From: Isurus oxyrinchus
Taxonomy: Eukaryota
Direction of reading: 5' to 3'
Length of the DNA: 64,000 nt
Assembly: GCA_026770705.1 (NCBI GenBank)
Contig: JANJGN010000047.1
Span: forward strand, 4,402,001-4,466,000
Shown here: piece after piece, positions 26,908-59,848 of the stretch
Position numbering within the stretch: position 1 is the stretch's first letter
Layout: each line of letters begins with the position of its first letter
Program-made: the position numbers and the translations under genes
Notes under the pieces: model-generated
Seen by the model: only the letters and a program-made list of their open reading frames with translations
The model's database searches: none
What the model was told of the DNA's origin: nothing

Positions 26908-26953
26908 ATGCTGCGGTCCTTTCTGACTCTAATTGCACTGCAGCTTCTGAAAT
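26908..26953 (+). CDS. Exon 1: signal peptide [15 protein letters not shown]
   Basis: gggacgATGc start context (A at -3), hydrophobic leader, donor T|gtaagt, phase 1 matching the downstream exons. Confidence 0.8.
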
Positions 26954-29900
26954 GTAAGTTTTACAAATTAATATTATCATGTTCTACATTGAGGTTTCCA
27001 CTATTATTAAACAATGAATCTTATTAATGCACATATTGATATTTACTGCAGAATACATTGAGCTATATTGTATGGTTAGTTTTGGATGTTTATTCAAATA
27101 TTAACACGTTTGCCTGTTGAGTAATGGGATATTGCTTCAAAATAATACGCAGATCGAAGGAAACTCGCTGCCTGAAAGGCCGGTGAATGCAGAAACCCTC
27201 ATCACATTTAAAACATGTTCGGTTGCGCATTTACATTATGGTAGAGCACAAAGAAAGCGACCAAAAATGGAAAGGGTGACTAGGCGGTATCCGATTATTC
27301 GACCCGCGCAGGCCCATTCAGCCGAAGGCCCTCATTCTGAGCGCAAATTGCTATGGCTTTACCCGTGTGCATAGGTCCCTGTTCCCTGTCGGCGTTTACC
27401 TGAGGTCCCTTAACCGGCTGGCTAGTTCGGAGTTCTAAACATTCCTAACTGAGAATCTTGTACAGATATAAAACAGATGGATTTCCCGAGAGAATAATCC
27501 AGTCTGGGTTTTATTTATTGAGCACGGACCTTTTACATTTATTTCTGCCCTTCATTAAGATCGTATGAATTGAGGATTGACGGCTCGAGTTTATTTGCCA
27601 AAAAATTATGCAGTTAATATTTTAGGCATTTCAATTGACTTAAAAATCGATCATTTTGAATCATATTTGAAAGGTTTTTACAGCTGGTTGGTGATTGTTT
27701 TAAATGTGATATTTAGGTCAGAACGATTTAAGTCCGAACTACAACATAAATACAGCAGCTGAATTTATTGAGTCTCCTGCTACTCTTCCTCACGCTCAAC
27801 TTATTAAGATTTGCACAATGATCAGACAATTTCAGCAGAGCTGGTACGACATAGAGAGCCGTCACTGTTAGAATATCATGGAGCGGAGTCTTTGTTCATG
27901 TCAACTAACTGAGTATGAAACTGCACCTTCAAAGGTGTGAGCCTCCACACATATTACTGTCAGGGGTATTTCTCATTCGCTGTTCCGCGGGAATTCGGTG
28001 TGATATAGGGACAAACACTACAGCATCTATAACAGTTGGTTCTGCTTTAGAGTGTTTTGCAAGTTCGATAAATAGTTTATATTGAAATAGGAATAAAGAG
28101 CACAATTATTTTTATAATGTTTTCTTTTGGCAATTAAGTGCATTCTCCAAATATATAGTTACTGCAACTTCTTTAACTCATGGGAAGAGACTTATTAATG
28201 CTCTTGCTTAATTTTTAATACAACCTTCCACGTATGACCACATTGTATGGATATTAAAATTCCCATTGAATTGTTTGTTTTTCAGGTTTATGTCATAAGT
28301 ACGTTGGTTCACATTTATTCCAAATTCTCATTGTTTTTCACGGTGTTTAATGAGGTATCGAGTCTTGTGCCTTTACTTCCTTCCACCTGCCTGATATTAT
28401 TATTCAGTTTTATGTCGATGCCGTGGTTGAGATTTGTTGCTGCTTCCAGTGTGTGTCTTCTTTTACAATTATAAATCTCTTATTAACAATAGGAAATGCT
28501 GCCTTAGTGACAGGGAAACCTCGCTGCATTCTTGTCAGGTACACAGTAAAAGGCATATGGCTCCCTAAATCAGTTTCAATTATTTAGAAATAAATGACTG
28601 ACACTAAACGCCAGGCATTGTAATTTATTTGAGGAATATGTCTTCTAAATAAAAGCACTGCTAGAAGCATGTATTATATATTGCTCCAGAAAGCACTTTT
28701 CACAAATACAGGAATGAACAAAATTCTTTGTGGAAAATTGGATTATCTTTCCTTAAATCCATAATTAATTTGGGTTGTTTAAGTGAATCCTGAAACAGTT
28801 AATTTAATTGCGTTGAATTCTGAATGTAGACAGTTTGCTCATTTGTTTCATTTTAAATCGCCAAGTTCAAAAGGCCAAATGTGACCATTGCTTTTGGTGG
28901 CTGTAATCTGGGCTAACATGTTTTACTTATTTCGAATTGAAACAGAGACATGGGTGTGAAAAGGTCGAAAGTGATCACACTCCCAGCAGTTTGCTTTTAT
29001 CTTCACCTCTGCGCCTCTTGGACAGAAACAACAGACTAGACATACAATTCGAACCAGGTTATTTAAATTCAGTGGATAAGGAACAGAGACCGTCGTTGTT
29101 AGAAAGGAACAGATCAAATTCTGGAATGTAAATTAACTCAATGAGTACAAAATCCTGGTCAGTGAAGCACTCACTGGTGAATGAACCATTGCAGATGTTT
29201 CAGTAACTGAATTTCCTCAGTAGAAATGTGGTCAAACCTACTTGTGATACAGTGAAATAAGAAGCATGCAAATGCTTTATTCAGCAATAGAGGGTTGGAT
29301 AATATTTTTGAATAGTGTAGAATAAAATCTTAATTTTTGTCAGCTTAAACATTGCTTGAATTAAGTTTTACTATATGTATAATTATTACCTGCAATCTAC
29401 AAAAACTTACTTAGCTAAAAATGTTCTTATATTTACATATTTGCTCAGAATTTTTCTTATCTTTTACTTGCATCAATATTATGACTGTTTGATATGAAGT
29501 TGTAGTTTCTGTTTCGCTCATTATCTGTGTACAGATTCAGGAAATTATCAAGTTTTATCCTCCTCCTTCCAAATTCCCGATAACTTTTATGTGGACTTAA
29601 GGGGATCTCGGGATTTTTTTTTCAATTACTTTGCATCGGGGCGAGGATTTTTTATTTTTTTTTTTGCTGCTTTGGCGGTGAAATGCACAAAAATAAATTG
29701 TGTTTTACTGACAGGGAATAAATTCGAGAATTATCAGACACATTTTTCATTTATCAAAATATATTTACATTGGCTATTTACTTTATTTTTTAAACAAAAC
29801 ATGAAAAATAAAAGTTTTAATTCTAAAATCCTAATTGTGTCGCCAATTTTACGAACATTCCCTGCAGAGAGCAGAAAGGAGACAGAAGACGAAATTAATA

Positions 29901-32900
29901 TAATCCCGAATCATTTTCACAAACCAAGCGCAGATCAGGTTTAAATCCCCAAAAGCGGGCCTATGTTAACATTTATATTAAATGGAGAGAGATTTGAAAC
30001 TGCTAATTTAAATTGTGGAAATGTCATTGAATGCATATTACGGACTGCATTATTTTCCCTTCATTCGACATCAAAAAGGGAAATTAATTTATCAAATTCT
30101 ATTAATAAATGTGACATCTAAATATTAACTTGCATCTGCCTAACAGAAAGTTTGAATACGTGGCCAAATACATATCACATTTCGATGTAATCCAGAATAC
30201 AACTCGCAGAAACGAGTCAGTTAGTTTTATGTTCTCCCCTACGGCTCTTGCACAGGCAAAGCAGCGTCAATTGCAAATGTTTTTAATCCCAGAGTGCTTG
30301 CAGCAGACAGCATTTACTCTAAGAGAAGCGTGGATCACATTCTGGGATGTAAGGTCACTGGCCGACTGTACAAACCTTGTTAAAGTTGCCTTTTCTGCCA
30401 ACTGAACCCGTGCGCATATTTTTTAAAACAGATGTTTATCAGTGGCAGAGGGTTGTGACTGTTGTGTGCTATAATGAGCGGATAGATTTCAAATAGTGTT
30501 TCCAATTGAACTTTGGAATTATGGACAATGACTGTTATATTTTTTTCAAATTTAAATTGTAAATTGCGATCGAACAATGTTGGTTGTGATAGGATAATTA
30601 TGGTTATAATGAGTATTAATTGTGTGCTGATAAGCGAGGAGAGCATAAGATCTCACATTTCACAGGCAATTAACCTGTAAACATGCTTGATTATGTGTTT
30701 CTTTTTGGGGGGCCTGAAATCTGTTTTAATTAAATCACTTACCTAAGGAAAACTTTTATATGTATATTACTTACGTGAACCTGAATGTTTGTCAGCCTTT
30801 TCCACATGCTGCATATGTTTTTATAACAGGATCGTGTTGTAGCTAATGAGATATCAGATCTCAACTCTCAATCTTGCATTGCTTTGGGTCGGTTTGTATC
30901 AGGCTTCAGGTCGCATTTATATCTTGTGCATCTTTTGCATGAGGTGCTTAATGTGGAGCTGTTTGGACTGCCGCTCAAGGGGGTTGCTATGAACTAGCTG
31001 GTGCGCAGCTTCTTGAGTATTGTTGCGACTTACATTACCCAGGCAATCAGAGACAATTCCAATAAACTCCTGAGTAATATATTCTAGGAAGGTGCAGGCT
31101 TTGTGCAGGAATGGCAGAAATCATGCAAGCGGTTGCAGAAATTCAACTGAGGGCGGGAATCAATGTGAGAGTTATTTAACACTTTAAACAGGGAATATAG
31201 AGATACCAGAATATCCTCCTGGTTAAACTAAAAAGCAGAGCCCATTATGGAAACTGTTAACGCACAATCAATGGTGTGAAACCAACAAATGGAAAGTGAC
31301 CAAAAACAGGCCGGTCACCATGTCTTGGAGCACCGACAGTGGCTGTGGTAAACATACTATCTTTAGTATGTTAGAGGGACCTTAGATGGTGAAGAGGTGT
31401 TCTGTGTAATGGGTTTTCTCGGGATCTCCTGGGTAAACGTTGACCAGTTAATAACATGAACCTGCTACTGAGCCTGTAGTGGATGCTTTATTAGGAGTGG
31501 AAAACAGATTAAATCACAAATCGCGGGATTATTTCTTCTGAAAAGCGACGGGAAATCTACCTTCAGATAATGATGGAAACTTGGGTGTTTGTTGAATTTT
31601 TTAACATAAAGTTCCTGAAAACCTTATGTTCAAAAAATGACCAAATATTCTCGCATTTGCTTTGAACAAAGAACGCTTTTTGCCGTTTCATCGTTCTCTT
31701 ACCCCCATGTAACTTTAATTTTCAACATTTCATTTCAGGCAGAACTGGGAGCAGTCAGGCTGATCCATCAGGTAATAACTCTCAATTTTCATATTATCTG
31801 AAATTTTTCTGTCCACTCTACGTGAATTAAAACTAACTATTGGAGACAATTGCGGTACCGACTTGATCATTGATTAACTCGCTCTCCATGTGCCTGTCAG
31901 GGAGGAATGGAATGTTTCCTGCACTCTGATAATGAACATACTTAAACCCTGTTGAGGGACAATTGCTGTCTAATGCAGAGTGACTATGACTTGGGTCCCA
32001 GATAGGAGAATGTCAATACCACTGATACTGCTTTTGATCCCAACTGGGCTGCCAATTCGTGAACAGACAGAGATAGAGGTTGCATGACATTCCGGTTCCG
32101 GAAGTTGGGGGAGGGTGGAGCTGGCTGGGAGAAGGAGATTGCAATTTGTGCTCTGATACTCTGAATGGATCTCAGTCTCCGCCAATCAGTGAGTTCGCTA
32201 TTATATTCATATCCATCTCCTGATCTCCGGGACTGGAATAAATTCTGAACGTATCGACACTGTCCCAGAAGGGGCATCTCTCCAACTTATACCGGCTCGT
32301 TTATGGGTTTAATACAATTATAGCCTTGCGTTTGAAATGTTTGATATTTAAATCGAGTTTCAATGGGAGATTGGGCCAAATTCTTCTGCTCTGACCTGCA
32401 GAAAGTGGAGACCGGTTAGCTGGGTCTCGCGGTTTTAATAGGTTGTAATTCTATGCTTATTATTGTATTTTACAGAGGCTGTGAAACTGAGACTGGCGGA
32501 TGGGGGCAGTCGATGCGCAGGAAGAGTGGAGATTCACTACAGAGGGCAGTGGGGGACTGTGTATGATTACAGCTGGGACCTGCAGGACGCCGCTGTTGTG
32601 TGTCGGGAGCTGGGCTGCGGGACCGCGGTCTCTGCACCGGGCGGGGCTCACTTTGGGGAAGGTTCCGGGCCCATTGTGACGGTGGGTGTTCAGTGCAGCG
32701 GGAACGAGGCCGCCCTGCGAGAGTGTACATCAATTTCCTGGGATCACTATTCCATTTCACACAACGATGATGCCAGCGCGATCTGCTCAGGTACAAATAT
32801 TTCTTCTGCTTCACATTGCCCATCGTATCCGATTTTCTTTCCCCTGGAATAAAGGCGGAAATGTTATTTTGGGACAGCTGATAGCTGAAGAATGAGACTT

Positions 32901-35900
32901 AGGGCAGGATATTCTAGTTGGAGTTAATGTTATATTCAATTAGAATGCTTGCGTGTCATACATTCATGTCAATAATTGTGTTAATTTATAAAATTAAGCT
33001 CACACCGGAACGGCACGTTGCAGCCCGCTTTATATCACTGCTGGCTTCTTGCTGTGAGATGACCCGGACAATCCATGGAAAGCGAAGAATGTTTGGAAAA
33101 TCCCGCAAGCATTATACCCTCACCCTCCCCACTTGCACGGATGGTTCGGCATGCTCTTGCGGTAATCAGTGAGAGCGATTGCAGAGTCCGGTTATTCTCT
33201 TCCAAATTCCCGATAACTTTTATGTGGACTTAAGGGGATCTCGGGATTTTTTTACAATTACTTGGCATCGGGGCGAGGATTTTTTTTATTTTTTTTGCTG
33301 CTTTGGCGGTGAAAAGCACAAAAATAAATTGTGTTTTACTGACAGGGAACAAATTCGAGAATTATCAGACACATTTTCCATTTATCAAAATATATTTACA
33401 TTGTTTATTTACTTTATTTTTTAAACAAAACATGAAAAATGAAAGTTTTAATTCTAAAATCCTAATTGTGTCGCCAATTTTACGAACATTCCCTGCAGAG
33501 AGCAGAATGGAGACAGAAGACGAAATTAACATAATCCCGAATCATTTTCACAAACCAAGCGCAGATTAGGTTTAAATCCCCAAAAGCGGGCCTATGTTAA
33601 CATTTATATTAAATGGAGAGAGATTTGAAACTGCTAATTTAAATTGTGGAAATGTCATTGAATGCATATTACGGACTGCATTATTTTCCCTTCATTCGAC
33701 ATCAAAAAGGGAAATTAATTTATCAAATTCTATTAATAAATGTGACATCTAAATATTAACTTGCATCTGCCTAACAGAAACTTTGAATACGTGGCCAAAT
33801 ACATATCACATTTCAATTTAATCCAGAATACAACTCGCAGAAACGAGTCAGTTAGTTTTACGTTCTCCCCTGCGGCTCTTGCACAGGCAAAGCAGCGTCA
33901 ATTGCAAATGTTTTTAATCCCAGAGCGCTAGAAGCAGAGAGCATTTACTCTAAGAGAAGCGTGGATCACATTCTGCGATGTAAGGTCACTGGCCGACTGT
34001 ACAAACCTTGTTAAAGTTGCCTTTTCTGCCAACTGAACCCGTGCGCATATTTTTTAAAACAGATGTTTATCAGTGGCAGAGGGTTGTGACTGTTGTGTGC
34101 TATAATGAGCGGATAGATTTCAAATAGTGTTTTCAATTGAACTTTGGAATTATGGACAATGACTGTTATATTTTTTTCAAATTTAAATTGTAAATTGCGA
34201 TCGAACAATGTTGGTTGTGATAGGATAATTATGGTTATAATGAGTATTAATTGTGTGCTGATAGGCGAGGGGAGCATAAGATCTCACATTTCACAGGCAA
34301 TTAACATGTAAACATGCTTGATTATGTGTTTCTTTTTGGGGGGCCTGAAATCTGTTTCAATTAAATCACTTACCTAAGGAAAACTTTTATATGTATATTA
34401 CTTACGTGAACCTGAATGTTTGTCAGCCTTTTCCACATGCTGCATATGTTTTTATAACAGGATCGTGTTGTAGCTAATGAGATATCAGATCTCAACTCTC
34501 AATCTTGCATTGCTTTGGGTCGGTTTGTATCAGGCTTTAGGTCGCATTTATATCTTGTGCATCTTTTGCATGAGGTGCTTAATGTGGAGCTGTTTGGACT
34601 GCCGCTCAAGGGTGTTGCTATGAACTAGCTGGTGCGCAGCTTCTTGAGTATTGTTGCGACTTACATTACCCAGGCAATCAGAGACAATTCCAATAAACTC
34701 CTGAGTAATATATTCTAGGAAGGTGCAGGCTTTGTGCAGGAATGGCAGAAATCATGCAAGGGGTTGCAGAAATTCAACTGAGGGCGGGAATCAATGTGAG
34801 ATGTTCTTTAACACTTTAAACAGGGAATATAGAGATACCAGAATATCCTCCTGGTTAAACTAAAAAACAGAGCCCATTATGGAAACTGTTAACGCACAAT
34901 CAATGGTGTGAAACCAACAAATGGAAAGTGACCAAAAACAGGCCGGTCACCATGTTTTGGAGCACCGACAGTGGCTGTGGTAAACATACTATCTTTAGTA
35001 TGCTAGAGGGACCTTAGATGGTGAAGAGGTGTTCTGTGTAATGGGTTTTCTCGGGATCTCCTGGGTAAACGTTGACCAGTTAATAACATGAACCTGCTAC
35101 TGAGCCTGTAGTGGATGCTTCATTAGGAGTGGAAAACAAATTAAATGACAAATCGCGGGATTATTTCTTCTGAAAAGCGACGGGAAATCTACCTTCAGAT
35201 AATGATGGAAACTTGGGTGTTTGTTGAATTTTTTAACATAAAGTTCCTGAAAACCTTATGTTCAAAAAATGACAAAATATTCTCGCATTTGCTTTGAACA
35301 AAGAACGCTTTTGTCCATTTCATCGTTCTCTTACCCCCATGAAACTTTAATTTTCAATATTTCATTTCAGGCAGAACTGGGAGCAGTCAGGCTGATCCAT
35401 CAGGTAATAACTCTCAATTTTCATATTATCTGAAATTTTTCTGTCCATTCTACGTGAATTAAAACTAACTGCTGGAGACAATTGCGATACCGACTTGATC
35501 ATTGATTAACTCGCTCTCCATGTGCCTGTCAGGGAGGAACGGAATGTTTCCTGCACTCTGATAATGAACATACTTAAACCCTGTTGAGGGAAAATTGCTG
35601 TCTAATGCAGAGTGGCCATGACTTGGGTCCGGGAGAGGAGAATGGCAATAACCACTGATACTGCTTTTGATCCCAAATGGGCTGCCAATTCGCGAACAGA
35701 CAGAGATAGAGGTTACATGACATTCCAGTTCCGGAGGTTGGGGGAGGGTGGGGCTGGCTGGGAGAAGGAAATTGCAATTTGTGCTCTGATACTCTGAATG
35801 GATCTCAGTCTCCGCCAATCAGTGAGTTCGCTATTATAGTCTCCTCCATCTCCTTATCTCCGGGGACTGGAATAAATTCTGAACGTATCGACAAACTGTC

Positions 35901-41900: not shown

Positions 41901-44900
41901 AACGGAGAATACGCCATTGCTGTTTCCTTGTATTATGATCATTCCCAAGCACTTCCTTATAGTTCACTGTCGCTTTTTATGATTCTGGAATAACGCAATT
42001 ATGTTTAAGTCAGTAACTTCTGCGTAATCTGAAAATAATGCATTATTATTGCGAAATTAATGCTTGCACCATACATAGGTTTTTCATTCACATTTGCCAG
42101 AACACCCATTATCGATTGAACTCTCAAGTCGTTTTCTGTCTGCCAAACATGAAATGACTTCATTAATTATAAAAGTAGGCGAATCAATATTTAACTGTGG
42201 TTTCATTATTTTAGAGAGGCGTTTCAATGAATTGACCGAAATAAAGTAAATAATTAGGAGAAAATTTCCTTTCTTGTTTCTTGCTCAAAATAGTGGGATT
42301 ATCTCCGTAGCAGCATTGCAACTGTATGTGCTATGTGCCTACGTCAACAGTCCAAGAGAATGAATTCCAATCGCTTCCACAGGGGAATGTAGAAAATAGG
42401 AATAAATGCAGGCCATCTCAAATATATTCCTGTCCCGGCAATAACAACTTCATCCCTTGAGTGACCTTGTTCTGGATTACTGGACCCGTGACTCTTTGCC
42501 AAATCTTTGAAATCCATTTAAGATTTTGAACATCGTTTAATCAGCCCTAATCCTTCCAGAGTAAATAGCTTCAAGACATTTTTGTTCGATTCGGAATCAC
42601 AATACAATGTTTAAGTAAATTAAGCATCCTTCTATATATACGTTGCATCCCCTCCAAGACGAATAGTTTCTTCTGGAGTGCCCTGTCCAAATCTGACAGC
42701 TGTTATACAGGTTGGTTCTGGCCAATACTGGGTATGACTGAAACGTCACGTCCTCTCTTTGGTATTTCAAAGCTGTTGAGACAAAGTCCAAAATTCCATT
42801 AGCTTTTTCCTGGATGAACTCTCTACTTTGAGCAAACAGACGCGTTCGTTTAAGGGCTTATCGCAGTCTGGTGAGTTTCAAACAGTAAGATGTGTAAACA
42901 GTGCAGTACAACACGAATTTATAAATTTTCATCTCTTCATTTTTCTTTGTTTCGCCATGTCTATATTCATATGTTCATTTACAAAATATTTTCGTCCTTA
43001 TTTTTATTAAAAACAGGGAAGCATGGACCCCGATTGGTTGGTGGTGAGAACAGGTGCTCCGGCCGGGTGGAAGTGCTGCACGGAGAGCAGTGGGGGACCC
43101 TGTGTGATATTCACTTTGGTTTAGAAGACGCCAGTGTGGTGTGTGAGCACCTTCAGTGCGGGGCTGTAAAGGAAATCCCGAGGGTTTCTCCCTTTGGGCA
43201 GGGAGCAGGCCGTGTGTGGAAGGAAAATTACAGGTGCCACGGGAATGAATCGCGAGTGACAGAGTGTCGGGTTACATCCGGGGAAAATTTTAACTGCTCA
43301 CATGGAAATGACGCCAGTGTCATCTGTTCAGGTGAGACCTCTCAGTCAATGTAATCATGGATTAAAATAATCTCCCTGCAACACTGAAAGGGGCCTTTCA
43401 GCATGTTCTGTCCATGGAGGCTCTCTGCGAAAGTATCTCACCCACTCACACAACCCTGCAATTTACAATAACTGTGCATTGTTTTTCACTCATTTATCTA
43501 ACCATATATATTTTAAAATCTGCGATTCATATTCATCCACCACATCTTCAGGCAGTGCATTTCAGATCCTCGCCGCCACATTCTTAGACGATGCTTTTCA
43601 TATCTTCAAGCACCATATTCTCCAACAATGAATTGCAGATCCTCATCACCATCATTTTCAGAGAGTGCATTTCATATCCTCATCCTTCGCTTTCTCAGGC
43701 AGTGCATTGCAGACCCTCATCATCCATATTCTCCAACAGTACAATGCAGATCATCAAATACCACAATCTTAGACAGTGGATTGTAGATCGTCATCCAGCA
43801 CATTCTCAGACAATGCATTCCAGATCCTCGTCACTCACATTTTCAGAAAATGCAGTGAAGATCCACATACGCCACATTTCCAGACAATGCATTGCAGGTC
43901 GACATCCACCACAATCTCAGACAGCATATTTCAGATCTTTATCCACCAACTTGTCGGAAGGTGCATTCCATGTCCTCATTCACCAAATTATCTGAAAGAG
44001 CATTGCAGATCGTCATCCAGCACATTCTCATACATGTGCATTCCAGACCCTCATCACCCACATTCTCAGACAGTGCATTGCAAATCTTTATTCCCCCACA
44101 TTCTCAGGCAGTGGATTGCAGATCCAAATCCACCACATTCTCAAGCAGTGCATTGCAGATCCACATCCCCCACAATCTCAGACCGTGTGTTTCAGATCCT
44201 CCCCCCCCCCCCCCACGATCTCAGAATGTGCATGTCAGATAGCTTGAAGCAGATCCTCACCTACCCCCATTCTCAGCCAGTGCATTGTAGACAGTCATCC
44301 ATCACATTCTCAGACAGTGTATTGCGGATTGCCATCCAGCATATTCTGGTACATTGCATCCCAGGTCCTCATCACCCACATTCTCTGTCAATGCATTACA
44401 GATCCTCATCCATCACAATCTAAGACATTGCATTGCAGATCTTAAGCTAGCATTTTCTCAGACAGTGCTTTGCATTTCATCATTCACTACAATTTCAGTC
44501 AGTGCATTGCATATCCTCGTCCACCACATTCTCAGGCAGTGCATTGCAGAACGTAATTAATCGCAACATGCAAAACTAGCATCCTTATGTCACCATTTCC
44601 AATTTGTCCATCACCATGAATCTGTACTGATCATTCTTGATCCTTCCGCCAATGGCAACAATTTTTCTGTGCCGTAATGTCCAGAACCCGAAGGTTGTTT
44701 TAGCATTCCCTCTCCAAGTAGAATATTCGTAGCTCACTCAAACAATGTAGAAAAAATACGTTTGTCATCACCGGAATGATCTTATGAAGCATTCCTGCAT
44801 CATTTCTAATGCCTTCATACCCTCCCTAACGTTTGTAGCCCAGAAATGGAAGCATTATTCCAGATGAGGCCGAAATGAATCATAACATCTTCCATTCAGT

Positions 44901-50900: not shown

Positions 50901-53900
50901 CGCCAGTGTGATTTGTTCCGGTAAGGGTAGTGCAGAATGGTGCGGGTCGGGGCCGGGAGATTGGCAGTTGGTGATTGTTTGCTGAATACGTCTCATGAAT
51001 TCGTAAATGATGAAAAAGAGATGACTTTCTAAGTTAAAGTTCTATATTTTTTGTATAATAACCCATAGGTCCAGAGTTGTCATCGGCTGCTTTTCCATCC
51101 AAACCCGCAGGTTGGTCTTATGAATAATGAGTATTCCTGTCAAGGCTAATGTTCAGAATGATCTGATATAATTGGCTTTTGCTTGTTTTTATAAAGAAAT
51201 TCCGAGGTTAATCTTAGTGTTTCAGAATGTTGGACCGTTTAACAATACAAAGCATTTTGTGTCCTAGTTGAATCTTTCTTTAACATTTCATTAAGGACAT
51301 GAAGACAATATCACTTCCATCCCTCTTGTGATTGGTATAACAATCGGTATCCTGTTGATCTGTGAGTTCATCCTACTAATTGTGGTAATGCGGAGGCAAT
51401 CATCAAGGAAAGGTGAGGACAAACATTACCACTCACTTCACATTAAATCTCGGATATTTTTATTTTTTATTTCAATTCATGAATGATATTTGAGACTCTC
51501 TGGCAGTCCTGCATTCATTGGCCATCCAAAATTGCCCTTGAGAAAGAGGTGATGAGATGACTTCTTGAACCGTTGCAGTCCATGTTGCATAGGTACACCA
51601 CCGTACTTTTATGGAGGGAGTTTAAGGATTTGACCCAGCGACTGTGTCAGAACGGCGACAAATATCTAAATAAAAATAGCGACCGGCTTGGAGGGTGACT
51701 TCCAGTAAGTGGTTTTCCCATATCTCTGCTTCGCTTGTCATTCTCCTTGGTTGTTTATGTGGTTTTGGAATGTCCTACCTAAGCAGCCTTACTGGATTCT
51801 TCAAGTGCATCTTATAAACAGTACACACTGCTGCCACTGTAAGCGGATGATGAATGGAGTGATTGGTTGTGGATATGGTGCCAAAAAAGCAGAAAGCTTT
51901 ATTCTGGATGGCGGCAAACCTCTAGAATTTTGTTGTAGCTGCACTCAAACAGGCAAGTGGATAATCTTCAGGAACACTCTTGATTGTCCCTTGCAGACGA
52001 TGGAAAGGATTTGCCTAGTCTGGTGTTAAGTTCCTCAGAAGGGTTTCTTGTCTCTAACCTGCTTTTGTCACCACATCATTCTAATCACAAGCCCAGTTCA
52101 GTTTCTGGTCAATGGAAATGCCTGGGATGTTGTTAGTGGGGGAATCAGTGATGGCAATGCTACTGAATGTCAAAGGCTGCCAGTTGGATTGCACCGTGTT
52201 GTAGATCGTCATTTCCTGGCACTAGTGAGGCACGAATTTTACTCTCCACTATGAATGTCAGGCCTGGATATGGTCCATGTCTGACAGCATGTGGGCATGG
52301 CCTGCTGCAGTAGCTGAGGATTCGGGACTGGTAATAAACATTGTGCCATCATCAGTGGAAATCCTCACGCATGACCTTCAGATGATGACATGGTCATTGA
52401 TGAAACAGGTGAAGATCGTTGGTCCTAGCACGCTATGCTGAGGAGCTCCTGCATTAATGTCCAACTACTGAAAGATGATTGACCTCCAACAACCACAATT
52501 CCCTTGTTCTATGCTCACTCTGACTTCAAGCAGTGAAGAATTTCCCCCTGAATCCTATTGGCTCCAGTGTTTTTTTTTCAGGTGCCTTCATGCCTCGTAC
52601 ACTGGCGAGAATTCACTTCATTGTCCTTTTCCATTGAATCTCACTTGTAATGTTGGAAACTTATGTTAAGCAATTTAACGAGAATTTTCGTTCAAAGTAC
52701 TTGGTCAAACAGTGAAATGTGTCATTTAAATTGAAGAATCACTTGACTGTCCACATTCGCATTCCTAATGATTCCACCGCTACTGCGTCTGAAGGTCAAT
52801 CAATTGTTGCAGCCATAGATCTGAAGGTTATTTGAAGCATTTTAGACTTAGTGCCCAGTCATGATGTTTCCGTCATTCGAAGTCAATCCAATCAGTGTCC
52901 GTCCACTCCTTGAGTTTCCGTGCCCTGATGCCCATTCTCATTCTCCATAGCCAGAATCGATCCACAATTTTGAGATGTGAGACTTCGATGGGATTTTCAG
53001 CACCAATTTTTGAATATTGTGTACAATGACATAAGTAACTACTCTGATCTGAACAACCATCACACTCCTGTTCGATGCGCAAAGCAAATTAATTTTAATG
53101 TTGATGCGATACATAAAAGAAAGGTCATCTCCTCACTCGTCTTTCCAACCTGATGCTCTCAGCAGAATCAATCATTTTTCCCCTGCTTCTCTTCAGCTAA
53201 AATCCCCTTGGGTCTCACGACAGAGTTTTCAGCTGAAATTGATTCCTCCCGGAAACGCCTTGTTTCGTCTTTTCCGACCTTAATTAAATTTCCCCTAGTC
53301 TGATGGAGTTGAACATGCTTCCATGCGGTTACCCACACATGCACACGCCCACACAGACACAGTCCCATGTACATAACGTCTCTCTCTCTGTCTCTCATTT
53401 TATCTCTCTCACACACACATTTGGATACGCACTCTCTTGTAAAATAAAACGTACTTAACAAAAGATCATTCAAAGCCAGCTCACTGACTTTTTGCATTCA
53501 CATTCACCATCTGTTTTGTGATATTATTTGAAAACATTTTAATATTCAGCAAAGTAAAATGCAACAAAATGTTAATCCCTCCACATTGTCTCCATCAGGT
53601 TTTGCCACTGGCAGTTGGGCTTCACCAATTGATTTGTACCAAGCAATTTATGAAGAAATTGAAAATATACCACCTGTCAAAGATCCAGCTCTGACCCGTG
53701 GCTCAGGTTTGTAACTTCCATTGCAAATCCAATACGCACTGGGGAACTCCCTTTCCGTTCACCCCCGTTAAAAGTCCGGGCAATGCATGGGCCCAACAGG
53801 CATTCCACTCACTTTCCTCATGTGAAAGTTTCCTATCTCCGCTTACTTTTGTTACGTGAGAAGAGTAATGAGCTTCTCAAATTTCCCAAAATTCTGTTTT

Positions 53901-56900
53901 ACCTAAAGGGTGCTTTGCCGTTTGGTGGAAAATAGCGATCAGATCAGTGTTTCCAACTTCCCAAGGGACTGCTCACTGCATTCATTAGGTATCAGACTGA
54001 CAAAATTATGCAAAGAGAGGATTATAAAACAGAAAATGCAATCCACTCTCATCAACTATGATAGCCTACAGGGCCGCTGATCTCAGGGGCTGAGAATCAT
54101 ATTCGGGTATCATTTATCCAACATTATGAATACCTATAATGGAAAGAAAAACACATTCAAACTACTTTCAACAGAATCCACGAGAACATTTTTTCAATAA
54201 CTAATAAGAATATGCTAAACACTGGGCCAAACCATTGGGAACAAGAGCACATGGCAAAAAAAGAAATAACGATAAGTTAGGGAAGAATAACAATGATGGG
54301 AAGAATTGTGGTGGCATGCAGGATAAGGGAGAACGTGAAGAAAGATGAAAAATGTAGTTATGGTGATAATAATGACTAGTCAATGAAATGATCGTGGATT
54401 GTCTAGCAAATTAGTAGAATATTTAACGGTACAAAGTAAGGGTAGGTCAATATGGCATGACAGTGTTCCAAAAAGGAACTGAAAGAATAAGAGCGGCATT
54501 CATGAAATATCAGAAATATTACTTAACAACATTATTTTAGTATTCACTAGGGGTAAGAGGGCATGACTTTGGAAAATTAGATTAGGAGCGACAACAATTC
54601 ATTTAAAAAGAAAGTTAAAAAAAAATCTTTCCAAAAATATCATGGGTCAGAACAATTTGCATCCATTAATTACGGAAAAAAATAAGATAGCAGAGGCACA
54701 TTTACAGTGATCAAACAATTCATTTCAAACAGTGGTAGTGCCACGATCCTGGCAGGTAACTAAAATTAAATGTGCAATTAAATATGGAGAAGAAAAATGT
54801 CCAGGACAAAAGATCCGTTGCCTGAACGTTGGTTGGAGAAAAACTTATTCAATTGATACAAAGGAGGAAAAGGGTACAAATTAGCATCAAACGACTAAAA
54901 TAGCAGCCAGCAAACACTCGATAATGGGAACTGTCACTTTAGGAACGTCAGCAAAATGTTCAAAAAGGTAACAGCATAGATAAGGTTAGCAGTGAGGACA
55001 TACATTCTGTGGATTTGAAAAATATTTTTTGGAACTGTGCCCTTAACATAACGATGGATAATACAATTGCTTACATCTCAGCTATTGCCCAGTGGGTGTC
55101 AAATTTGCTTCTCATTCAATATCTTCTGGCATCCAGTTCCACTCCAGTACTTGCTCAGAAATATCAAGGAGACACTTGAGCAGCTGATGCGCTCTTGGCA
55201 GTGTTCTCTTTCAGAGTCATTGTTTAAGTGGTGACCAAAATATCTTCTCCTGGAGAATTTAGACATGCCCTTGGTATACTGACAAATATGTATATCTTGA
55301 ACAAAATCACAAAGTCAGATTATCTGCTAATTAGTACATTGCTGTGGTTGCCCGTGGAAAGAATTTTTGTTTACAAATTGTCTGCCACCTGTCCCATATT
55401 TCAATAGTGACGATACGTCACAAGTGTCCATTAGCTGCAAACAGCTTTGGACATATGGTGATCATGAAAAGCACTGTTTGCTCTTATTCATTACATTTAC
55501 ATGGAGTCAAGTGACACCTATGGAAATGAGTAGCCTGCTGCCTGCAAGACAAGAAACAGAGTGTTATACAAGGTAGTTATGTAGGGGGAGGAAAGTGGGA
55601 ATGGGTATTTAAAACGCATCACTGCTGGGATTACTGTTGTTATAAATTAATCTGAATGATTTAGATTTTGGATGAAAACGATATATTTTTCTAAATGTAT
55701 CTAGTGACCAAATTGTGGTGGGCTGGGGGCAGTGAAAGCATTTTAAAAACAGACATTAATAAATTTCCGACAAAGAACATACGATTAGCAAATGAATCTC
55801 TACATAATAATTATGGGGAATTTCAATCTAGTATAACAAGTAAGAATTAATTTTCGATCTGTAACAATGAATCGGAATTAAATACTAAAATCGTTGAATG
55901 CAGGAGTTCAGGGAAACGAATAAAGAAAGAAAATCGATGCTGAATGATCAGGTTGTAAAAAACCAAAACAAACACTAATTTATTTCTGGATATTTGTCCG
56001 TGAATAACAATATTACTCTGTTGAACCTCGATCGAACATTAGTTCGAGGGAATTTGGAATATAATTTAGGGTTCTGACCAGCATATTATTATAAGATATA
56101 GAGGAGTAGTTGATGAGGCTCGCAGCACTTTACAAGAACGAAAACCGTGTTATGAGCAAAAGGAATCCAAAAATGCTGAAAATAAGGATCATAAAATTCT
56201 TGGTCTCTTTCTGGTTCCATTGCCCATGAGTTCCTTTCTCCTCCGTCAAATGGTGCGGAATTAACGTCTCTGAAAATGAAAGGGAAGGGGAGTTTTGGGC
56301 AGGGGATTATTTATTGTAACCTCTACTCCAAAGGTCTGAACACTTCTTTACCGTGTGGAGACTATAATGATATAAACAATTGCTCCAAGAACCAAATTAT
56401 TTTGTCCCCTTTCTTTAACAGTTTCTGCTTCCATTGTTTCGCTCAATGATATCGAATATTACACCAGCCACATTTTGGATTTCAAAAGTCTTGGATCGCA
56501 AACTCCTGACGAGAACTCATCCAGTATTCAGGGTGGGTAAAGTTTTACTTCCGACCGTCTCGTTTTCATCCTTCGCACTCAGTAATATCAACAATCGAAT
56601 GTGAAGTATTAACAAGAACAAAAACACCATTAAGTTGCACGGACGATGATATCAGCTACTACAGTGACTTTAGATAAAAGCGCTTCTGAAATACTTTCAG
56701 GCTGATACAATATCATATCAAAATCATGTGATTGTACTCAATAATACAAAGGAGTGAAATGCTTTAACTTAGAGTACATATCATATTATTAGTTTCATCA
56801 CAAGGCCCAGTAACCTGCGAAATGTGAAATGCGCATGCAGGCTGTCGAGATCATTGGGTCAGTGAGACACGTGACATCAAAACATAAAATAATAATACTG

Positions 56901-59848
56901 TGACGCTAAATGTTCCAAAAATTATCCACACATTAAACGCCCTCCCCTGTTAGTGCAACAGAACCACTGTTCTCTCCTCGGAATGTTTTGTTGACAAGTC
57001 TCAATGTTATTCCAACTCTTCACTGTTAGCAATTAATCTCAATGAAAGTCGTTTGTTCCTCCCAGCTTTCCGTGATTACGACGATGCTGAGACTACAGAC
57101 AATGATTCTAAGGGCGATCACTTGCTGCTGGACCGTGATCATGATGATTTTGTCACACGGGAAAATACCGGCGGTGATATTTTAACTCTGGGTGAGACAG
57201 AGATTTATTTATCTTCTCAGACTGTCTCTCTGTATTGTTGGTGACTTTCTTACTCTCTGCTTACATCGGTTCTGAAATGACTGATAGTCCATTGGATGAA
57301 CTGCGGAGTCTATCACTAACGGCACATGCGCTGCTTGAATGGTTGGGTAGACAGGTTGTCCGAACTGTTGTGCGCTCCGTCAATCATCTCGACTTAGTTT
57401 ATGCACGTTTGTGTTTGCTGGATTGCGGCCAGCCGCGTTCTCAGATAAGTCGCGGGGTTCGCTGAGTGTCTTCAGGGATGCGTTGGAAACATCCCTGAAT
57501 TGTTTTTCCTCCTCCTTCTGGGAGAAATCTGCCTCCTGCACCTCCCGCCACTGACTTCAGAGTAGATGATTACTTGTGATTATTCCTTCCATCACCAGCT
57601 CACATTTGCGGAATGAACTGGATCTCTTTTAAAGTTCATTCATATTGGCGATTGAACAAAGCTTTTTTAGGAGTATGCTCCTCTTGAGCTGATACCACTT
57701 ATTTCTTGAATTTGTTGGATATGGGCGACACTGACTTGGCCAGAATTTATTGCCAGAACACAATTGTCTTTGCAAAGGTGGTGGTGAGCTGCATTCTTGT
57801 AGCTTTGTAGCCCCTCTATTGTAAGTACCCGCACAAAGCTGTTGAACACAGGTTTCCAGCATTCTGAGCCAGTGACACTGAATTAAAGGCAATAAATTTC
57901 CAAGCCAGAAAGGCTTGTGGCTTGGAGGGACATTCCAAATGTCGGTGATCTCATGTATGCTATTCCCGTGTCCCACTAAATGGCCCTGGTCCGGCGCTCA
58001 GATGGTGCTGCCACAGGGGAGTTAGTGAGATTCTGCAGTACCTCCTACAGATGGTGCACATTGATGCTACTGTTCTTCAATGTGATGGGAGTGAATGTTT
58101 GTGGAAGGGATAGCAATCAAGCAGAGTTCCTAGTTCCGTATGTTGATGAGCTTCTTGCGTGTTGTTAGTCGTGCAATCGTCCACTCAAGTGAAGAGTTTT
58201 CCATTAGGCTCCTGACTTGTGCCTTGTCGACTATGTACAGGTTCTGTGGAGTCAGGAGTTGAGCTGCTCACCTCAGGGTTCTGAGAATCTGACATGCTCT
58301 TGTAGTCAAAGTGTTTACCTGGCTATTCCAGTTCAATTGATGGTCAATTGTAAGCCCCACGATTTTGATAGCGGGGGATTCAGAGATGACCATGCCATTA
58401 AATGTCAAGGTTAGATTCTCCCTTATGGGAGATGGTAATTGTCTGGCACCTTTGTGGAGTGAATGTTACTTGTCACATGTCAGCACAAGACGGGATATTT
58501 TCAAAATTGTGCTGCATTTAGTCAAGGGCAATTTCAGAACCTGAGCTGTTGTGAACGGTGATGATCACGGTGCAATCAACAGCGAACATTCCCGATTCTC
58601 ACCTTCTGATGAAAGGAAGGTCATTCATGAAGCAGCTGAAGATGACTGGGCCGAGGGCACTAATCCGAGGAACTCCTGCAGTGGTGCCCTATAACTGAGA
58701 TCCATGGCCTCCAAAAGCCACAGCCATTTTCCTGTGTGGTATATGTTACTCCAAGCAACGGCAAGTTTTTTTTTTTCATTCCCTTGGATCCCAAAGACTC
58801 CAGTTTCACTCGGGCTACTTGAAGCCACGCTGCGGTCACATAACGCCCTGATGTCAAAGGCACTCACTGGCCCCTCACCGTGGCAGTTCAGGTTTGTTGT
58901 CCATGTTTGATCCAAGGCCAAAAATAATAATGAACCCATACTGATTGACACTGAGCAGGAGACTGCAAAGCATGAGTCGCTTCTGATTTTAGTGATGATG
59001 GAGAGTAGACTGATTGGGATCGGGTTGGCTTTAGTCATTGATAAACTTAATGCTGTTTGCTGTGATTTTCTCATTTGTTCAGACCCCTAGCAGGAATACG
59101 TCGAGTGCTCAACATGAAACATCAGGCTTTGCAGGACGTCGTCTGTTGCCTCCCAGCAGCACAACGCAGCCCGGGCAAAAATAAACATCATTTCTCTTTC
59201 ATTCATAAATAAATAAATTCTAACATCTTCATGGTGCTGTCCCACACCCACACACATGCTTACTCACTTGTGCACAAACACACCAGGCACCGGAAATGCA
59301 CCCGCTCTCAGCCCATTATTAACCAATAATATGTTCATCCTAAGTGCATAACACTCAGGTTATTTTTGATTACGCCTTATCGGTTCCTCCCATTCCTGAT
59401 ATGTATGACAATGTCTTCTGTAAAACATTCACAAACCTGCCCAATCTGTCCCCAGAAAGCAGTGAGGGTATTGTTCAAACTTTACAGCATATACATTAAA
59501 CTGGGAAAGCAATGCTTTATTACCGGCTACAAGCTTGTTCCGCATAGTTAGGGACTATGAAGCCCTCTCTGGTCTTTACCATATCATTACATGGAGTTGT
59601 TCCGATGCTTTTAATGATGCGGAAATTATCAATGATAATTTGCTGTTTTTTTATTTTCAATTCAACAAACAACAAAAAAAACTATTTGATTTGGAAATAG
59701 TCCGAAGAATAAAATGAATGCATCGCTTTCATTTAGATGATGGCGGAAATAGTTGCAACACTCTCTCTAAAGTAATATTATTTTAACCCATCTTTCAGGT
59801 AAAATACATCGACAAATCGAGGATCCGACGTCCCACGCATGTGACTAA
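26908..59848 (+). CDS. Multi-exon CD163/SCART1/WC1-like group-B SRCR type I membrane receptor (leader, 8 SRCR domains, TM, Tyr-motif tail), about 1063 aa
   Basis: Hand-assembled exons, all with AG/GT ends and phase-1 introns: 26908-26953, 31739-31771, 32476-32790, 35371-35403, 36112-36426, 41534-41848, 43017-43331, 47486-47800, 48776-49090, 50081-50398, 50603-50920, 51069-51110, 51296-51412, 53599-53706, 56422-56532, 57066-57191, 59799-59848. Total 3192 nt, open frame with no internal stop. Small and terminal exons are less certain than the SRCR exons. Confidence 0.85.
31739..31771 (+). CDS. 33-nt linker micro-exon, copy 1 ([11 protein letters not shown])
   Basis: tttcatttcag acceptor and G|gtaata donor. 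Phase 1-1, in frame between leader and SRCR1. Identical in the second repeat unit. Confidence 0.7.
32476..32790 (+). CDS. SRCR domain 1 (6-Cys, WC1 domain-a-like, lacks C2 and C7)
   Basis: [45 protein letters not shown]...ICS; 315 nt; ttttacag / gtacaa. Confidence 0.95.
35371..35403 (+). CDS. 33-nt linker micro-exon, copy 2
   Basis: Same sequence and splice sites as 31739-31771. Confidence 0.65.
36112..36426 (+). CDS. SRCR domain 2 (duplicate of domain 1, C5 replaced by Tyr)
   Basis: [39 protein letters not shown]...VQYSGNE...ICS; 315 nt; splice sites intact. Confidence 0.9.
37650..38330 (+). mobile_element. L2/CR1-group LINE 3' fragment
   Basis: Similar to 60530-61255 (caccatcaaccaccattctctccctcagtgc...aattgtcttc...aactccc...cagcttc..caag). 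Confidence 0.5.
41534..41848 (+). CDS. SRCR domain 3 (8 Cys)
   Basis: [30 protein letters not shown]...VSCS; 315 nt; ctcag / gtgagt. Confidence 0.95.
43017..43331 (+). CDS. SRCR domain 4 (8 Cys)
   Basis: [27 protein letters not shown]...VICS; 315 nt; aacag / gtgaga. Confidence 0.95.
43390..45000 (-). mobile_element. CR1 LINE 3' fragment hosting an internal minisatellite
   Basis: CR1 tail before 43525. After 44555, cccagaaatggaagcattattccagatgaggccg (reverse complement of RPHLE...FW). Confidence 0.65.
43525..44552. repeat. 37-bp minisatellite, about 28 degenerate units (cagatcctcatccaccacattctcagacagtgcattg)
   Basis: Anchors at 43599, 43636, 43673, 43710 and 43747, spaced 37 bp. Confidence 0.92.
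45110..45520 (+). mobile_element. Deu-domain SINE (SacSINE1/AmnSINE-like), degenerate
   Basis: atctggtcattatcacac...atggctgcggcgttcc...tgcaacagtg matches the recalled Deu SINE 3' part. Confidence 0.6.
45550..46800 (-). mobile_element. Decayed CR1 LINE RT region
   Basis: tcaaagtccatcaaagccacatccac (reverse complement of VDV..MDF), aagggtgtaatatttg (NITPL). Confidence 0.6.
47486..47800 (+). CDS. SRCR domain 5 (lacks C2 and C7; C4 is Arg)
   Basis: [30 protein letters not shown]...VLCS; 315 nt; tgtag / gtgaat. Confidence 0.93.
48776..49090 (+). CDS. SRCR domain 6
   Basis: [30 protein letters not shown]...[14 protein letters not shown]; 315 nt; atcag / gtaagg. Confidence 0.95.
50081..50398 (+). 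CDS. SRCR domain 7
   Basis: [26 protein letters not shown]...[14 protein letters not shown]; 318 nt; gatag / gtaaca. Confidence 0.95.
50603..50920 (+). CDS. SRCR domain 8 (membrane-proximal)
   Basis: [30 protein letters not shown]...[13 protein letters not shown]; 318 nt; gacag / gtaagg. Confidence 0.95.
51069..51110 (+). CDS. Stalk micro-exon ([14 protein letters not shown])
   Basis: catag acceptor, CAG|gttggt donor, 42 nt, phase 1-1, Pro/Ser rich. Confidence 0.6.
51296..51412 (+). CDS. Transmembrane exon ([32 protein letters not shown])
   Basis: About 23-residue hydrophobic run followed by a basic stop-transfer segment; ttaag / gtgagg; 117 nt. Confidence 0.9.
51500..52600 (-). mobile_element. 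L2/CR1-group LINE 3' fragment
   Basis: attgcccttgagaa...cttcttgaaccgttgcagtccatgt tail, the reverse complement of 61100-61210. Confidence 0.7.
53599..53706 (+). CDS. Cytoplasmic exon 1 with LYQAIYEEI motif
   Basis: ccatcag / gtttgt; 108 nt open in phase 1; a YEE(I/L) motif is typical of WC1/SCART tails. Confidence 0.85.
54190..56300 (+). mobile_element. Old A-rich CR1 LINE ORF2 fragments with an embedded SINE
   Basis: cctggcaggtaactaa..atatggagaagaaa (W...N...K), [15 protein letters not shown] near 55620-55670. Confidence 0.55.
55090..55480 (+). mobile_element. Deu-domain SINE, degenerate
   Basis: cagattatctg..attag.acattgctg...caaattg.ctgcc...caatagtgac...attagctg.aaa..gctttgg. Confidence 0.6.
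56422..56532 (+). CDS. Cytoplasmic exon 2 ([17 protein letters not shown]...SSSIQ)
   Basis: Polypyrimidine tract plus aacag acceptor, G|gtgggt donor; 111 nt open in phase 1. Confidence 0.7.
57066..57191 (+). CDS. Cytoplasmic exon 3 with DYDDA motif
   Basis: ttcctcccag / gtgaga; 126 nt; acidic; a YDD(A/V) motif is seen in WC1/SCART tails. Confidence 0.8.
57690..59020 (-). mobile_element. L2/CR1-group LINE fragment
   Basis: Same family as 51500-52600. ctgggccgagggcactaatccgaggaactcc (reverse complement of GVP.GS.LGP) and ccctgatgtcaaaggc (A.DI.A). Confidence 0.7.
59799..59848 (+). CDS. Probable terminal coding exon ([16 protein letters not shown])
   Basis: tctttcag acceptor, TAA at 59846-59848, AATAAA at 59884-59889. 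A rival acceptor at 59083 would give DP*. Confidence 0.5.

Follow-up and report, generated by a model that had tools for sequence, protein, structure and literature searches.

Architecture of the receptor gene

The window analysed is a 64,000-nucleotide stretch of the Isurus oxyrinchus assembly GCA_026770705.1 (contig JANJGN010000047.1, forward strand, positions 4,402,001-4,466,000), and a receptor gene occupies window positions 26908..59848 on the + strand. Joining its 18 exons gave a single open frame of 1,082 amino acids, in which every intron is bounded by GT..AG and lies in phase 1. The predicted product carries, in order, a signal peptide, eight SRCR domains, a transmembrane (TM) helix with a mean hydropathy of 2.9 across 19 residues, and a tail of four exons that includes YEEI and YDDA. 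All eight SRCR exons scored above the PF00530 cut-off (Pfam), and the predicted SRCR fold is evident in the sequence. The features are as follows.

26908..26953, +, exon 1, ATG and signal peptide; a contig of run X6 connects it with the exon that follows
29566..36832, +, tandem duplication, 2 x 3.63 kb, 96.7% identical (units 29566-33197 and 33199-36832), covering linker and distal exon
31739..31771, +, 33-nt linker exon preceding the distal domain; RNA-type joints, also in white shark model P0123
32476..32790, +, SRCR 1, distal "a-position", 6 Cys, without C2/C7; the family's variable domain
35371..35403, +, 33-nt linker exon, duplicate; from the frame, no RNA-type joint seen
36112..36426, +, SRCR 2, second distal domain, 5 Cys (C5 to Tyr); overlooked in the first-pass annotation, no RNA-type joint seen
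41534..41848, +, SRCR 3, b/c-type, 8 Cys; within the b+c clade (99.5/100)
43017..43331, +, SRCR 4, b/c-type, 8 Cys; weakly nearer tetrapod b (trees 83/62 and 82/80)
47486..47800, +, SRCR 5, n-type without C2/C7 and, in the window copy, also without C4; grouped with the n-position domains of turtle and eel (98.9/99)
48776..49090, +, SRCR 6, d position; assigned by position, the tree leaving d unsettled
50081..50398, +, SRCR 7, e-type; grouped with the e domains of WC1, CD163A, turtle and eel (97/99)
50458..50514, +, 57-nt interdomain exon; RNA-type joints, also in P0123, added to the first-pass model
50603..50920, +, SRCR 8, d' position, membrane-proximal; assigned by position
51069..51110, +, juxtamembrane linker exon; RNA-type joints
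51296..51412, +, transmembrane exon; hydropathy and RNA-type joints
53599..53706, +, tail exon 1 with YEEI; RNA-type joints
56422..56532, +, tail exon 2; RNA-type joints, although one run X5 contig skips it
57066..57191, +, tail exon 3 with YDDA; RNA-type joints
59799..59848, +, tail exon 4 through the stop codon; joint in three runs

The first 33-nt mini-exon is required because splicing the signal exon straight to an SRCR exon would make a stop. Twelve of the 17 introns were joined in RNA-type contigs from close relatives, which are bulk, carry no tissue labels and come from runs none of which is on record as RNA. As all such contigs over position 47629 have a Cys codon, none derives from the window allele. 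Meanwhile, a great white shark RefSeq model showed the same exon chain with a single distal domain (86% identity across 931 residues).

A first-pass annotation of the window had placed the ATG at 26908 and the stop at 59848, and both ends were recovered, together with its 6-Cys distal domain without C2 and C7, its TM helix and its two tail motifs, each at the place it had given. Its total of seven SRCR domains should be corrected to eight, the distal exon being tandemly duplicated. Its description of the gene as intact holds for the open reading frame but not for the cysteines, two of which are privately lost: the second distal domain is the only 5-Cys domain among the 50 distal domains read, and C4 of the n domain is replaced by Arg, while the other 18 of the 19 closest copies keep Cys. 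No contig joining both distal exons was present among the RNA-type contigs, whose runs are not on record as RNA. With these two losses, the window copy may be an impaired or weakened family member.

Relationship to the CD163/WC1 family

Domain trees were built from 101 domains; mammalian SCART1 is absent from them, and no entry under that name occurred among the database matches listed. The b+c (99.5/100), n (98.9/99) and e (97/99) clades included tetrapod and eel domains and were stable after the C2/C7 columns were dropped. The predicted b/c, n and e domains are thereby placed firmly in the CD163/SCART/WC1 family, not with DMBT1, which is the outcome of the per-domain phylogeny that the first-pass annotation had proposed (four domains in CD163-family clades at 97-100 support). 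The order e, d', TM is present as in the CD163 family, with e assigned by tree and d' by position only. In a d-e-d' tree, the shark proximal cassette fell outside all bony-vertebrate members sampled, CD163A included, and is therefore a co-orthologue of WC1 and CD163A alike. As WC1 and CD163A/b grouped together inside the bony vertebrates (99.5/100), descent alone cannot pick a gamma-delta over a macrophage role. Hence descent brings the gene no nearer to WC1 than to CD163A.

The 6-Cys distal domain had also been taken as a mark of WC1/SCART. This reading was ruled out by the same-position domain of turtle, duck, kiwi and platypus, which has 8 Cys, and by the tree without Cys columns, where support for the shark distal domain with WC1 a fell from 92/79 to 48/38 once the two columns were removed. 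In a 62-domain tree, the shark distal domain joined its counterparts from fish, turtle and platypus (79/70; 81/81), and the WC1-a link was not recovered. In an initial AU test, whose constrained trees were the product of a fast search, shark+WC1 monophyly was rejected; a thorough repeat rejected none of three distal-domain constraints (p = 0.155 for WC1-a, 0.67, and 0.064 for DMBT1-like). The best single-domain match of the shark distal domain among solved structures was DMBT1. Taken together, the comparison suggests that the 6-Cys distal domains of shark and WC1 arose by convergence.

The tail motif YEEI fits the WC1 pattern Y-(Q/E)-(D/C/E)-(I/L) and aligned with WC1 after the TM helix. A TM+YEEI profile search returned 193 representatives at E<=0.001; SRCR domains were found in 108 of the 150 matches listed, and the informative names among 20 matches looked up were WC1.1-like, M130-like, DMBT1-like or SSC5D-like. 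The WC1 tail is encoded on 4-5 exons (PMC2681482), and those of bovine CD163A and CD163c-alpha on 2 exons, one of which, in CD163c-alpha, also carries the TM (PMC2906472). With a separate TM exon followed by four tail exons, the shark gene has the WC1 layout, not the bovine two-exon one. The multi-exon WC1-type tail of the first-pass annotation is thus upheld by the alignment, the profile search and the tail joints in RNA-type contigs. The long YEEI/YDDx tail is common to WC1, turtle and fish members and missing from lemur CD163A. Its occurrence within one architecture in sharks, rays and a chimaera points to an ancestral long tyrosine tail, with CD163A as a derived form.

Compared with known systems, the gene is like WC1 in its 6-Cys distal domain without C2/C7, its b/c, d, e, d' cassette, its TM and tail exons with YEE[I/L] and YDD[A/V], and its membership of a multigene family in which the distal domain is the most variable. 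Bovine/ovine WC1 reads a-b-c-d-e-d-b-c-d-e-d' and has 13 genes in cattle, the shark family having about nine times as many; the shark gene differs in having an n domain and no internal cassette repeat, possibly in a swapped b/c order, and in the place of its interdomain segment, which lies between e and d', that of WC1 lying between c and d. CD163c-alpha/SCART (m-l-b-c-n-d-e-d') likewise has eight domains ending in b/c-b/c-n-d-e-d', an n domain without C2/C7 and a Y-E-[D/E]-I motif (PMC2906472); the n domains are alike in sitting between c and d and in the cysteines they lack, and the shark n groups with turtle n, the link to mammalian n being made through PMC2906472. In contrast, its bovine m and l domains have 8 Cys (PMC2906472) whereas the shark distal domains lack C2/C7, its tail has two exons instead of four, and most eutherians have one or two genes. 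The closest domain order is that of the hybrid WC1/CD163c genes of chicken, turtle and duck (a + c-n-d-e-d'); the turtle n and e domains fall into clades with those of the shark, and the hybrids have a similar TM, YEEI and e-d' spacer, but their a-position domain has mostly 8 Cys, and chicken has 18 genes (PMC2906472). CD163A (M130) has b, c, d, e and d' in common with the shark gene, to which it is co-orthologous by the d-e-d' tree, and differs in having distal domains h-i-j-k, a short tail with YREM and one gene only, and in its role as haptoglobin-haemoglobin receptor. DMBT1/SALSA shares the SRCR fold, and its mapped cation and ligand site coincides with the variation of the shark distal domain; its acidic cluster is kept, whereas the shark distal domain has mostly lost it. 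DMBT1 is secreted and built of near-identical repeats with CUB and ZP, and CUB/ZP were visible in the Pfam annotation of database matches; from the DMBT1/SSC5D type, which is secreted and has near-identical 8-Cys repeats and CUB/ZP or a long C-terminal region, the shark gene differs in its TM, putative signalling tail and heterogeneous domains.

Copy number and variation of the distal domain

The window gene is one of about 110-120 look-alike CD163/WC1-type receptor copies in this shark assembly. An n-exon search gave 118 of 130 matches at at least 64% identity, on 53 contigs, of which 5 had stops, and a d' exon search gave 113 matches, 6 with stops; an open frame is kept by 113 of the 118 n exons and by 25 of the 30 TM exons examined, and some copies have stops or frameshifts. 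Since only 4 of 30 n loci had a partner of at least 99.5% identity on another contig, haplotype double-counting is at most a modest overcount in that sample. A neighbouring GPR139-like gene and 24 of the 25 GPR139-like genes at least 92% identical to it lie on four contigs (C47, C62, C87 and C114), which also carry 18 of the 19 receptor genes closest to the window copy. As the receptor genes thus sit in duplicated blocks with GPR139-like genes, their copy number may be partly passive. Proximal receptor loci are 98-99% identical, introns included. Co-duplication with immunoglobulin/MHC clusters was rejected, as 0 of 150 scored C1-set matches (of 973 candidates) fell on the same four contigs. 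A Pfam scan of 200 kb of flanking DNA, covering the 150 longest among 256 ORFs, yielded retroelement proteins, two GPCRs and two stray matches.

Within three subfamilies, identity was 0.88-0.89 in the distal domain and 0.96-0.98 in d', and pN/pS was 1.13, 0.65 and 1.02 against 0.28, 0.23 and 0.43. Intervals for the whole distal domain include 1, while d' is under purifying selection (0.28, interval 0.10-0.81). Cation-ligand positions have been mapped in DMBT1 (PMC7043408). The six equivalent positions were over-variable in all three subfamilies (p = 3e-5, 0.002 and 0.003), the positions being taken from that source but the test chosen after the variation was seen; over-variability at the same positions was not found in the n, d, e and d' domains. 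At codon positions 1+2 of these six face codons, diversity reached 0.36 (subfamily I) and 0.26 (II), against 0.036 and 0.043 in the upstream intron, the downstream intron being left out because its diversity is inflated by the duplication breakpoint. The excess over intron is about 10-fold (I) and 6-fold (II), with none elsewhere in the distal exon. Hence the distal domain is diversified where DMBT1 holds its Ca2+ and ligand. The acidic triad is kept in only 4 of 50 distal domains, whereas d and d' keep the acidic cluster. The distal variability profile is weakly correlated with that of WC1 a (Spearman 0.29, p = 0.004; 21 ruminant a repeats from two gene models). Neither the expansion nor this diversification could be revealed by an annotation written from the window alone.

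Proposed role and alternatives

By analogy with WC1, we lean towards a reading in which the variable outer domain would grip microbes and the tail would strengthen signals from the antigen receptor of lymphocytes, which may be gamma-delta T cells. The diversified distal face would bind its ligand probably without a bridging cation, YEEI would become phosphorylated, and co-ligation with the antigen receptor would lead to signalling through the tail. Among the WC1 domains of cattle the first diverges most, and bovine WC1 both binds bacteria and takes part in co-signalling (PMC3511184, PMC5949365). In cod, a gene named CD163-like, a candidate member of the same subfamily, marks the TCR gamma/delta cluster (PMC9276791). 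No SRCR-named gene marked any major cluster, T cells and macrophages included, in a bamboo shark marker list of 8,645 rows. A bolder and distinctly tentative version holds that shark gamma-delta T cells may carry more than 100 germline WC1-like hybrid receptors, the largest repertoire among the species with counts compared; that a tip-diversified multigene co-receptor may be as old as the gamma-delta TCR; and that sharks and laurasiatherians may each have lost the C2-C7 bond and calcium-binding acids, making the same SRCR face hypervariable.

Alternatively, the same diversified family could be carried by myeloid cells or by leukocytes other than gamma-delta cells and serve there, in the manner of CD163A/b, as scavenger or signalling pattern receptors, a reading that we consider rather unlikely though deserving serious weight. 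The shark genes are co-orthologous to CD163A/b as well as to WC1, bovine CD163A is broadly expressed (PMC2906472), and diversifying selection does not tell cell type; tongue sole genes named DMBT1-like, comparable by name only, mark macrophages and neutrophils, and also T cells. This is countered by the long tail shared with WC1 but missing in lemur CD163A, by the absence of h-i-j-k domains and by the bamboo shark list, in which no SRCR-named gene marks macrophages. A different objection concerns copy number itself, which might be a passenger of segmental duplications driven by the GPR139-like array, with most copies, the window one included, redundant or decaying. The shared four contigs, the near-identity of proximal loci with their introns, the disrupted copies and the private cysteine losses of the window copy would fit, but changes are uneven, with their excess over intron confined to the six face codons, d' is under purifying selection and most n and TM exons are open, so that we regard it as improbable. 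Finally, the database names, the best solved-structure match and the DMBT1-like constraint on the distal domain alone, which was not rejected, would agree with a membrane form of DMBT1/SSC5D, an epithelial agglutinin; against the CD163-family clades of four domains, the match of TM and tail to WC1-type tails and an exon chain that, like those of the white shark models, closes with TM and tail and contains neither a CUB nor a ZP exon, such an identity appears highly improbable.

Since sharks, rays and a chimaera have this architecture and tail in common, the family dates to the jawed-vertebrate ancestor, and relatives in chimaera, gar and coelacanth agree with the first-pass proposal of an origin at or before that point. 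The cartilaginous-fish source it had guessed was supported too, the tail exon sharing 90-95% identity with great white proteins and 86-92% with those of basking shark. It is likely that sharks possess a large set of immune-cell co-receptors for sensing microbes that goes under the wrong labels. An array of about 110-120 genes, varying on one mapped ligand face, would add a germline recognition repertoire to shark immunity, hidden as "DMBT1-like". It would supply candidate markers for shark gamma-delta T cells; variable face residues are identified as targets for binding tests by swapping. No paper on this shark receptor family was found in the open-access literature searched, WC1-like genes having previously been traced to chicken and platypus (PMC2906472). 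As the first-pass annotation had expected of automatic naming, 21 of 22 cartilaginous-fish homologues in one search were named DMBT1-like, while databases now apply the WC1-like name to turtles, marsupials and a teleost.

Gene structure and family placement

Six-frame motif scans located eight SRCR exons on the + strand at 32.4-50.9 kb of the window, and 8/8 passed the cut-off of Pfam PF00530. The first-pass annotation had counted a distal domain and six others, one too few. The gene model comprises 18 exons in a single frame of 1,082 aa, with GT-AG boundaries at 17/17 introns.

Non-SRCR exons, + strand: signal, two 33-nt linkers, 57-nt interdomain exon, juxtamembrane linker, TM, four tail exons

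The distal exon is doubled by a 3.63-kb tandem duplication, and its two copies show 12 residue and 4 silent codon differences. At least 12 of the 17 introns were bridged by RNA-type contigs (from runs presumed to be RNA, two organisms, aligned at at least 88% identity). Among the listed joints are those of the TM exon with tail exon 1, of tail exons 2 and 3, and of tail exons 3 and 4; one contig skipped tail exon 2. The listing did not include the n-d joint, the joint of tail exons 1 and 2, or any of the three flanking the second distal exon. In a great white shark model n-d and tail 1-2 are contiguous, with only one distal domain. Identity of the tail exon to proteins of great white and basking shark is 86-95%, which makes the source a lamniform shark. 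Some isoforms in white and basking shark models P0123, P0126 and P0121 lack the TM exon yet keep the tail, and others lack e. A degenerate 37-bp tandem repeat occupies window 43533-44556, in the intron 5' of the n exon.

The description of the gene as intact holds for its open frame but not for its cysteines. C5 is missing from the second distal domain (1/50 distal domains compared) and C4 from the n domain (1/19 closest copies), and each of these private losses leaves one unpaired Cys. A Cys codon was found at 47629 in all three RNA-type runs with a listed difference there; hence none of them stems from the window allele.

The SRCR domain letters, the n domain without C2/C7 and the Y-(Q/E)-(D/C/E)-(I/L) motif were defined by Herzig et al. 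(PMC2906472). Reference sequences for the trees came from the database searches of this analysis. For the serow CD163A/WC1 model and the turtle protein we took the letters from domain order, aided by the known layout of CD163, and they are consistent with proteins named WC1.1 and CD163; d and d' of the window gene were named from position. A tree of 101 domains placed domains three and four in the b+c clade (SH-aLRT/bootstrap 99.5/100). Domain five grouped with the n-position domains of turtle and eel (98.9/99), and domain seven joined the e domains of WC1, CD163A, turtle and eel (97/99); these placements bear out the proposed kinship with CD163, SCART and WC1. All three clades stayed after removing the C2 and C7 columns. 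Because the fourth domain leans to tetrapod b (83/62; 82/80) and the third does not, the b-c order may have been swapped or separately duplicated.

A TM+tail profile built on seven stretches matched 193 representatives at E<=0.001, and 108 of the 150 listed carried SRCR domains; the 20 looked up came from ruminants, camel, rodents, tenrec, birds, gar, sturgeon, teleosts and sharks. The four tail exons match the WC1 pattern as far as described in PMC2681482. When d, e and d' of 21 genes were concatenated, the tree separated all 16 bony-vertebrate genes, with WC1 and CD163A/b among them, from the five cartilaginous-fish genes (99.5/100). On this tree the shark genes stand as co-orthologues to all sampled bony-vertebrate members, and the long tyrosine tail looks ancestral. 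The window gene is real and almost certainly belongs to the CD163/WC1 receptor family.

Origin and diversification of the distal domain

The 6-Cys distal form was present in 11/11 cartilaginous-fish genera examined, including Callorhinchus, and in artiodactyls, mole, gar and cowbird, while turtles, duck, kiwi and platypus retain 8 Cys. It does not serve as a mark of WC1 and SCART receptors. Grouping of shark distal with WC1-a domains scored 92/79, and 48/38 without the two Cys columns. In a 62-domain tree the shark clade (97/100 with chimaera) joined distal domains of fish, then turtle, songbird and platypus, and WC1-a grouped with mole, kiwi and duck. AU tests rejected none of the constraints (shark with WC1, p = 0.155; all distal-position domains together, 0.67; DMBT1-like, 0.064). 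Separate losses of C2-C7 in shark and WC1 distal domains are suggested by these sequence comparisons.

Of the roughly 126 distal exons we compared 50, chosen for their score or picked by hand from different contigs (19, 11 and 20 from paralogue subfamilies I, II and III). Mean identity within I, II and III was 0.888, 0.889 and 0.884 for the distal domain and 0.982, 0.956 and 0.956 for d'; pN/pS was 1.13 (0.62-2.17), 0.65 (0.37-1.18) and 1.02 (0.55-2.22) against 0.28, 0.23 and 0.43. In subfamily I, n, d and e were intermediate (3/19 d and 1/18 e loci omitted for gaps).

In DMBT1, surface cations are bound by D1019, D1020, D1058, D1059, N1081 and E1086; mutating D1019 and D1020 abolishes binding, and CD6, CD163 and MARCO use the same surface (PMC7043408). 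By spacing and ungapped alignment to CD163 domains, these ligands correspond to shark positions 30, 31, 69, 70, 92 and 97. The six positions were over-variable in the distal domains of I, II and III (p = 3e-5, 0.002 and 0.003, in a test devised after the variation was noticed and on non-independent sequence pairs), as were the freed Cys positions 29 and 93 in each subfamily; the equivalent face positions in n, d, e and d' showed no excess (p = 0.26-1). In subfamilies I and II, codon positions 1+2 differed by 0.364 and 0.258 at the six sites, by 0.036/0.046 in the rest of the exon, and the upstream intron differed by 0.036/0.043. The acids at 30, 31 and 97 were retained in 4/50 distal domains, and in d and d'. 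Gene conversion may contribute to this pattern.

Copy number and genomic surroundings

Every genome search yielded about 1,200 candidates and scored only the 150 best. Among these, the distal exon gave at least 150 matches (the first 126 at at least 57% identity), the d' exon 113 (6 with stops) and tail exon 1 60. The n exon gave 130, with 118 at at least 64% on 53 contigs (5 with stops); left out were four degraded matches with 55-63% identity and eight on contigs C2 and C9 with about 50%. By comparison, cattle have 13 WC1 genes, sheep a predicted maximum of 50 (PMC3511184), and chicken 18 CD163-family genes (PMC2906472). A partner of at least 99.5% on another contig existed for 4/30 n loci; of 30 TM exons, 25 were intact, one was frameshifted and four had an altered start.

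Contigs C47 (that of the window) and C62 carry six n exons each, spaced about 180-510 kb apart. In four other subgroups one gene each was read, and its domains run a-(short or no domain)-b/c-n-d-e-d', ending in a YEEI or YEDI tail; among these examples the TM exon is frameshifted (subfamily II) and the d exon broken (contig C17). Subfamily III and C17 genes have, 3' of the distal domain, an SRCR domain that is some 20 residues short, and similarly short 4-Cys matches occur in models from horn shark, sawshark and sevengill.

G000:C176:276689-276946, shortened SRCR domain (locus L141 of the shark assembly)

A divergent cluster at G000:C2:236.5-237.6 Mb (L151-L154), about 50% identical to the main family, begins with a divergent 9-Cys domain, followed by b/c, b/c, n, d, e and d'. 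The n domain of this cluster groups with turtle n (80/95, 101-domain tree), and it is possibly a SCART-like branch.

The receptor gene is flanked by single-exon GPCRs whose nearest clusters are named "probable GPR139", and the closest copies of both lie on common contigs. Two form an inverted pair between the window gene and the next receptor gene (L067/L071).

G000:C47:4527898-4528821, - strand, single-exon GPR139-like GPCR
G000:C47:4566481-4567404, + strand, single-exon GPR139-like GPCR
Window 8764-9640 and 10307-10621, + strand, degraded GPR139-like fragments, 35-53% identity to the intact neighbour
Window 18005-19735, - strand, retroelement-like ORF of 576 aa, weak GIY-YIG match below cut-off

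The 576-aa ORF is presumably Penelope-like, and related pieces lie at window 17518-18340 and 21513-22314. All 128 scored GPR139-like matches reached at least 76% identity, with 7,947 first-look candidates, which suggests a very large GPCR array interleaved with receptor genes; we found no account of such an expansion in sharks in the open-access literature. The receptors are duplicated in blocks together with GPR139-like genes, which may account for how many there are but not for the concentration of amino-acid change.

No report of this shark receptor family was found among the open-access papers searched, and the text of PMC11372201 gave no term match. As predicted, automatic annotation obscures the family: 21/22 cartilaginous-fish homologues in one database search were named DMBT1-like, one "SRCR domain-containing" and none WC1-like. 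WC1-like SRCR genes have reportedly been seen in lamprey T-like cells.

Possible function and cell type

The predicted protein shows a type I membrane layout with conserved stalk and tail and a diversified tip. Src-family kinases phosphorylate the WC1 tail tyrosine in cattle. WC1 binds Leptospira via several domains including a1, and its co-ligation amplifies TCR signals (PMC5949365), for which the YEEL tyrosine is needed (PMC2906472). By analogy, the shark tip would bind microbial surfaces via paralogue-specific residues, and YEEI would be phosphorylated close to the antigen receptor. Such a lymphocyte co-receptor mechanism is, on this analogy, slightly favoured.

Gamma-delta links are described for cattle WC1 and CD163c and mouse SCART2 (PMC2906472), and the cod TCR gamma/delta cluster includes a CD163-like gene (PMC9276791); by extension, placing the shark receptors on gamma-delta T cells is a guess. 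In the supplement of PMC11372145 up to the T-cell subset tables, the bamboo shark marker list has no SRCR-named row; the searched text of the paper never names these genes, and tcrd expression is given there as low. In the tongue sole sheet (Supplementary Data 2 of that paper), "DMBT1" LOC103393936 marks T cells, at 57% versus 5% of cells.
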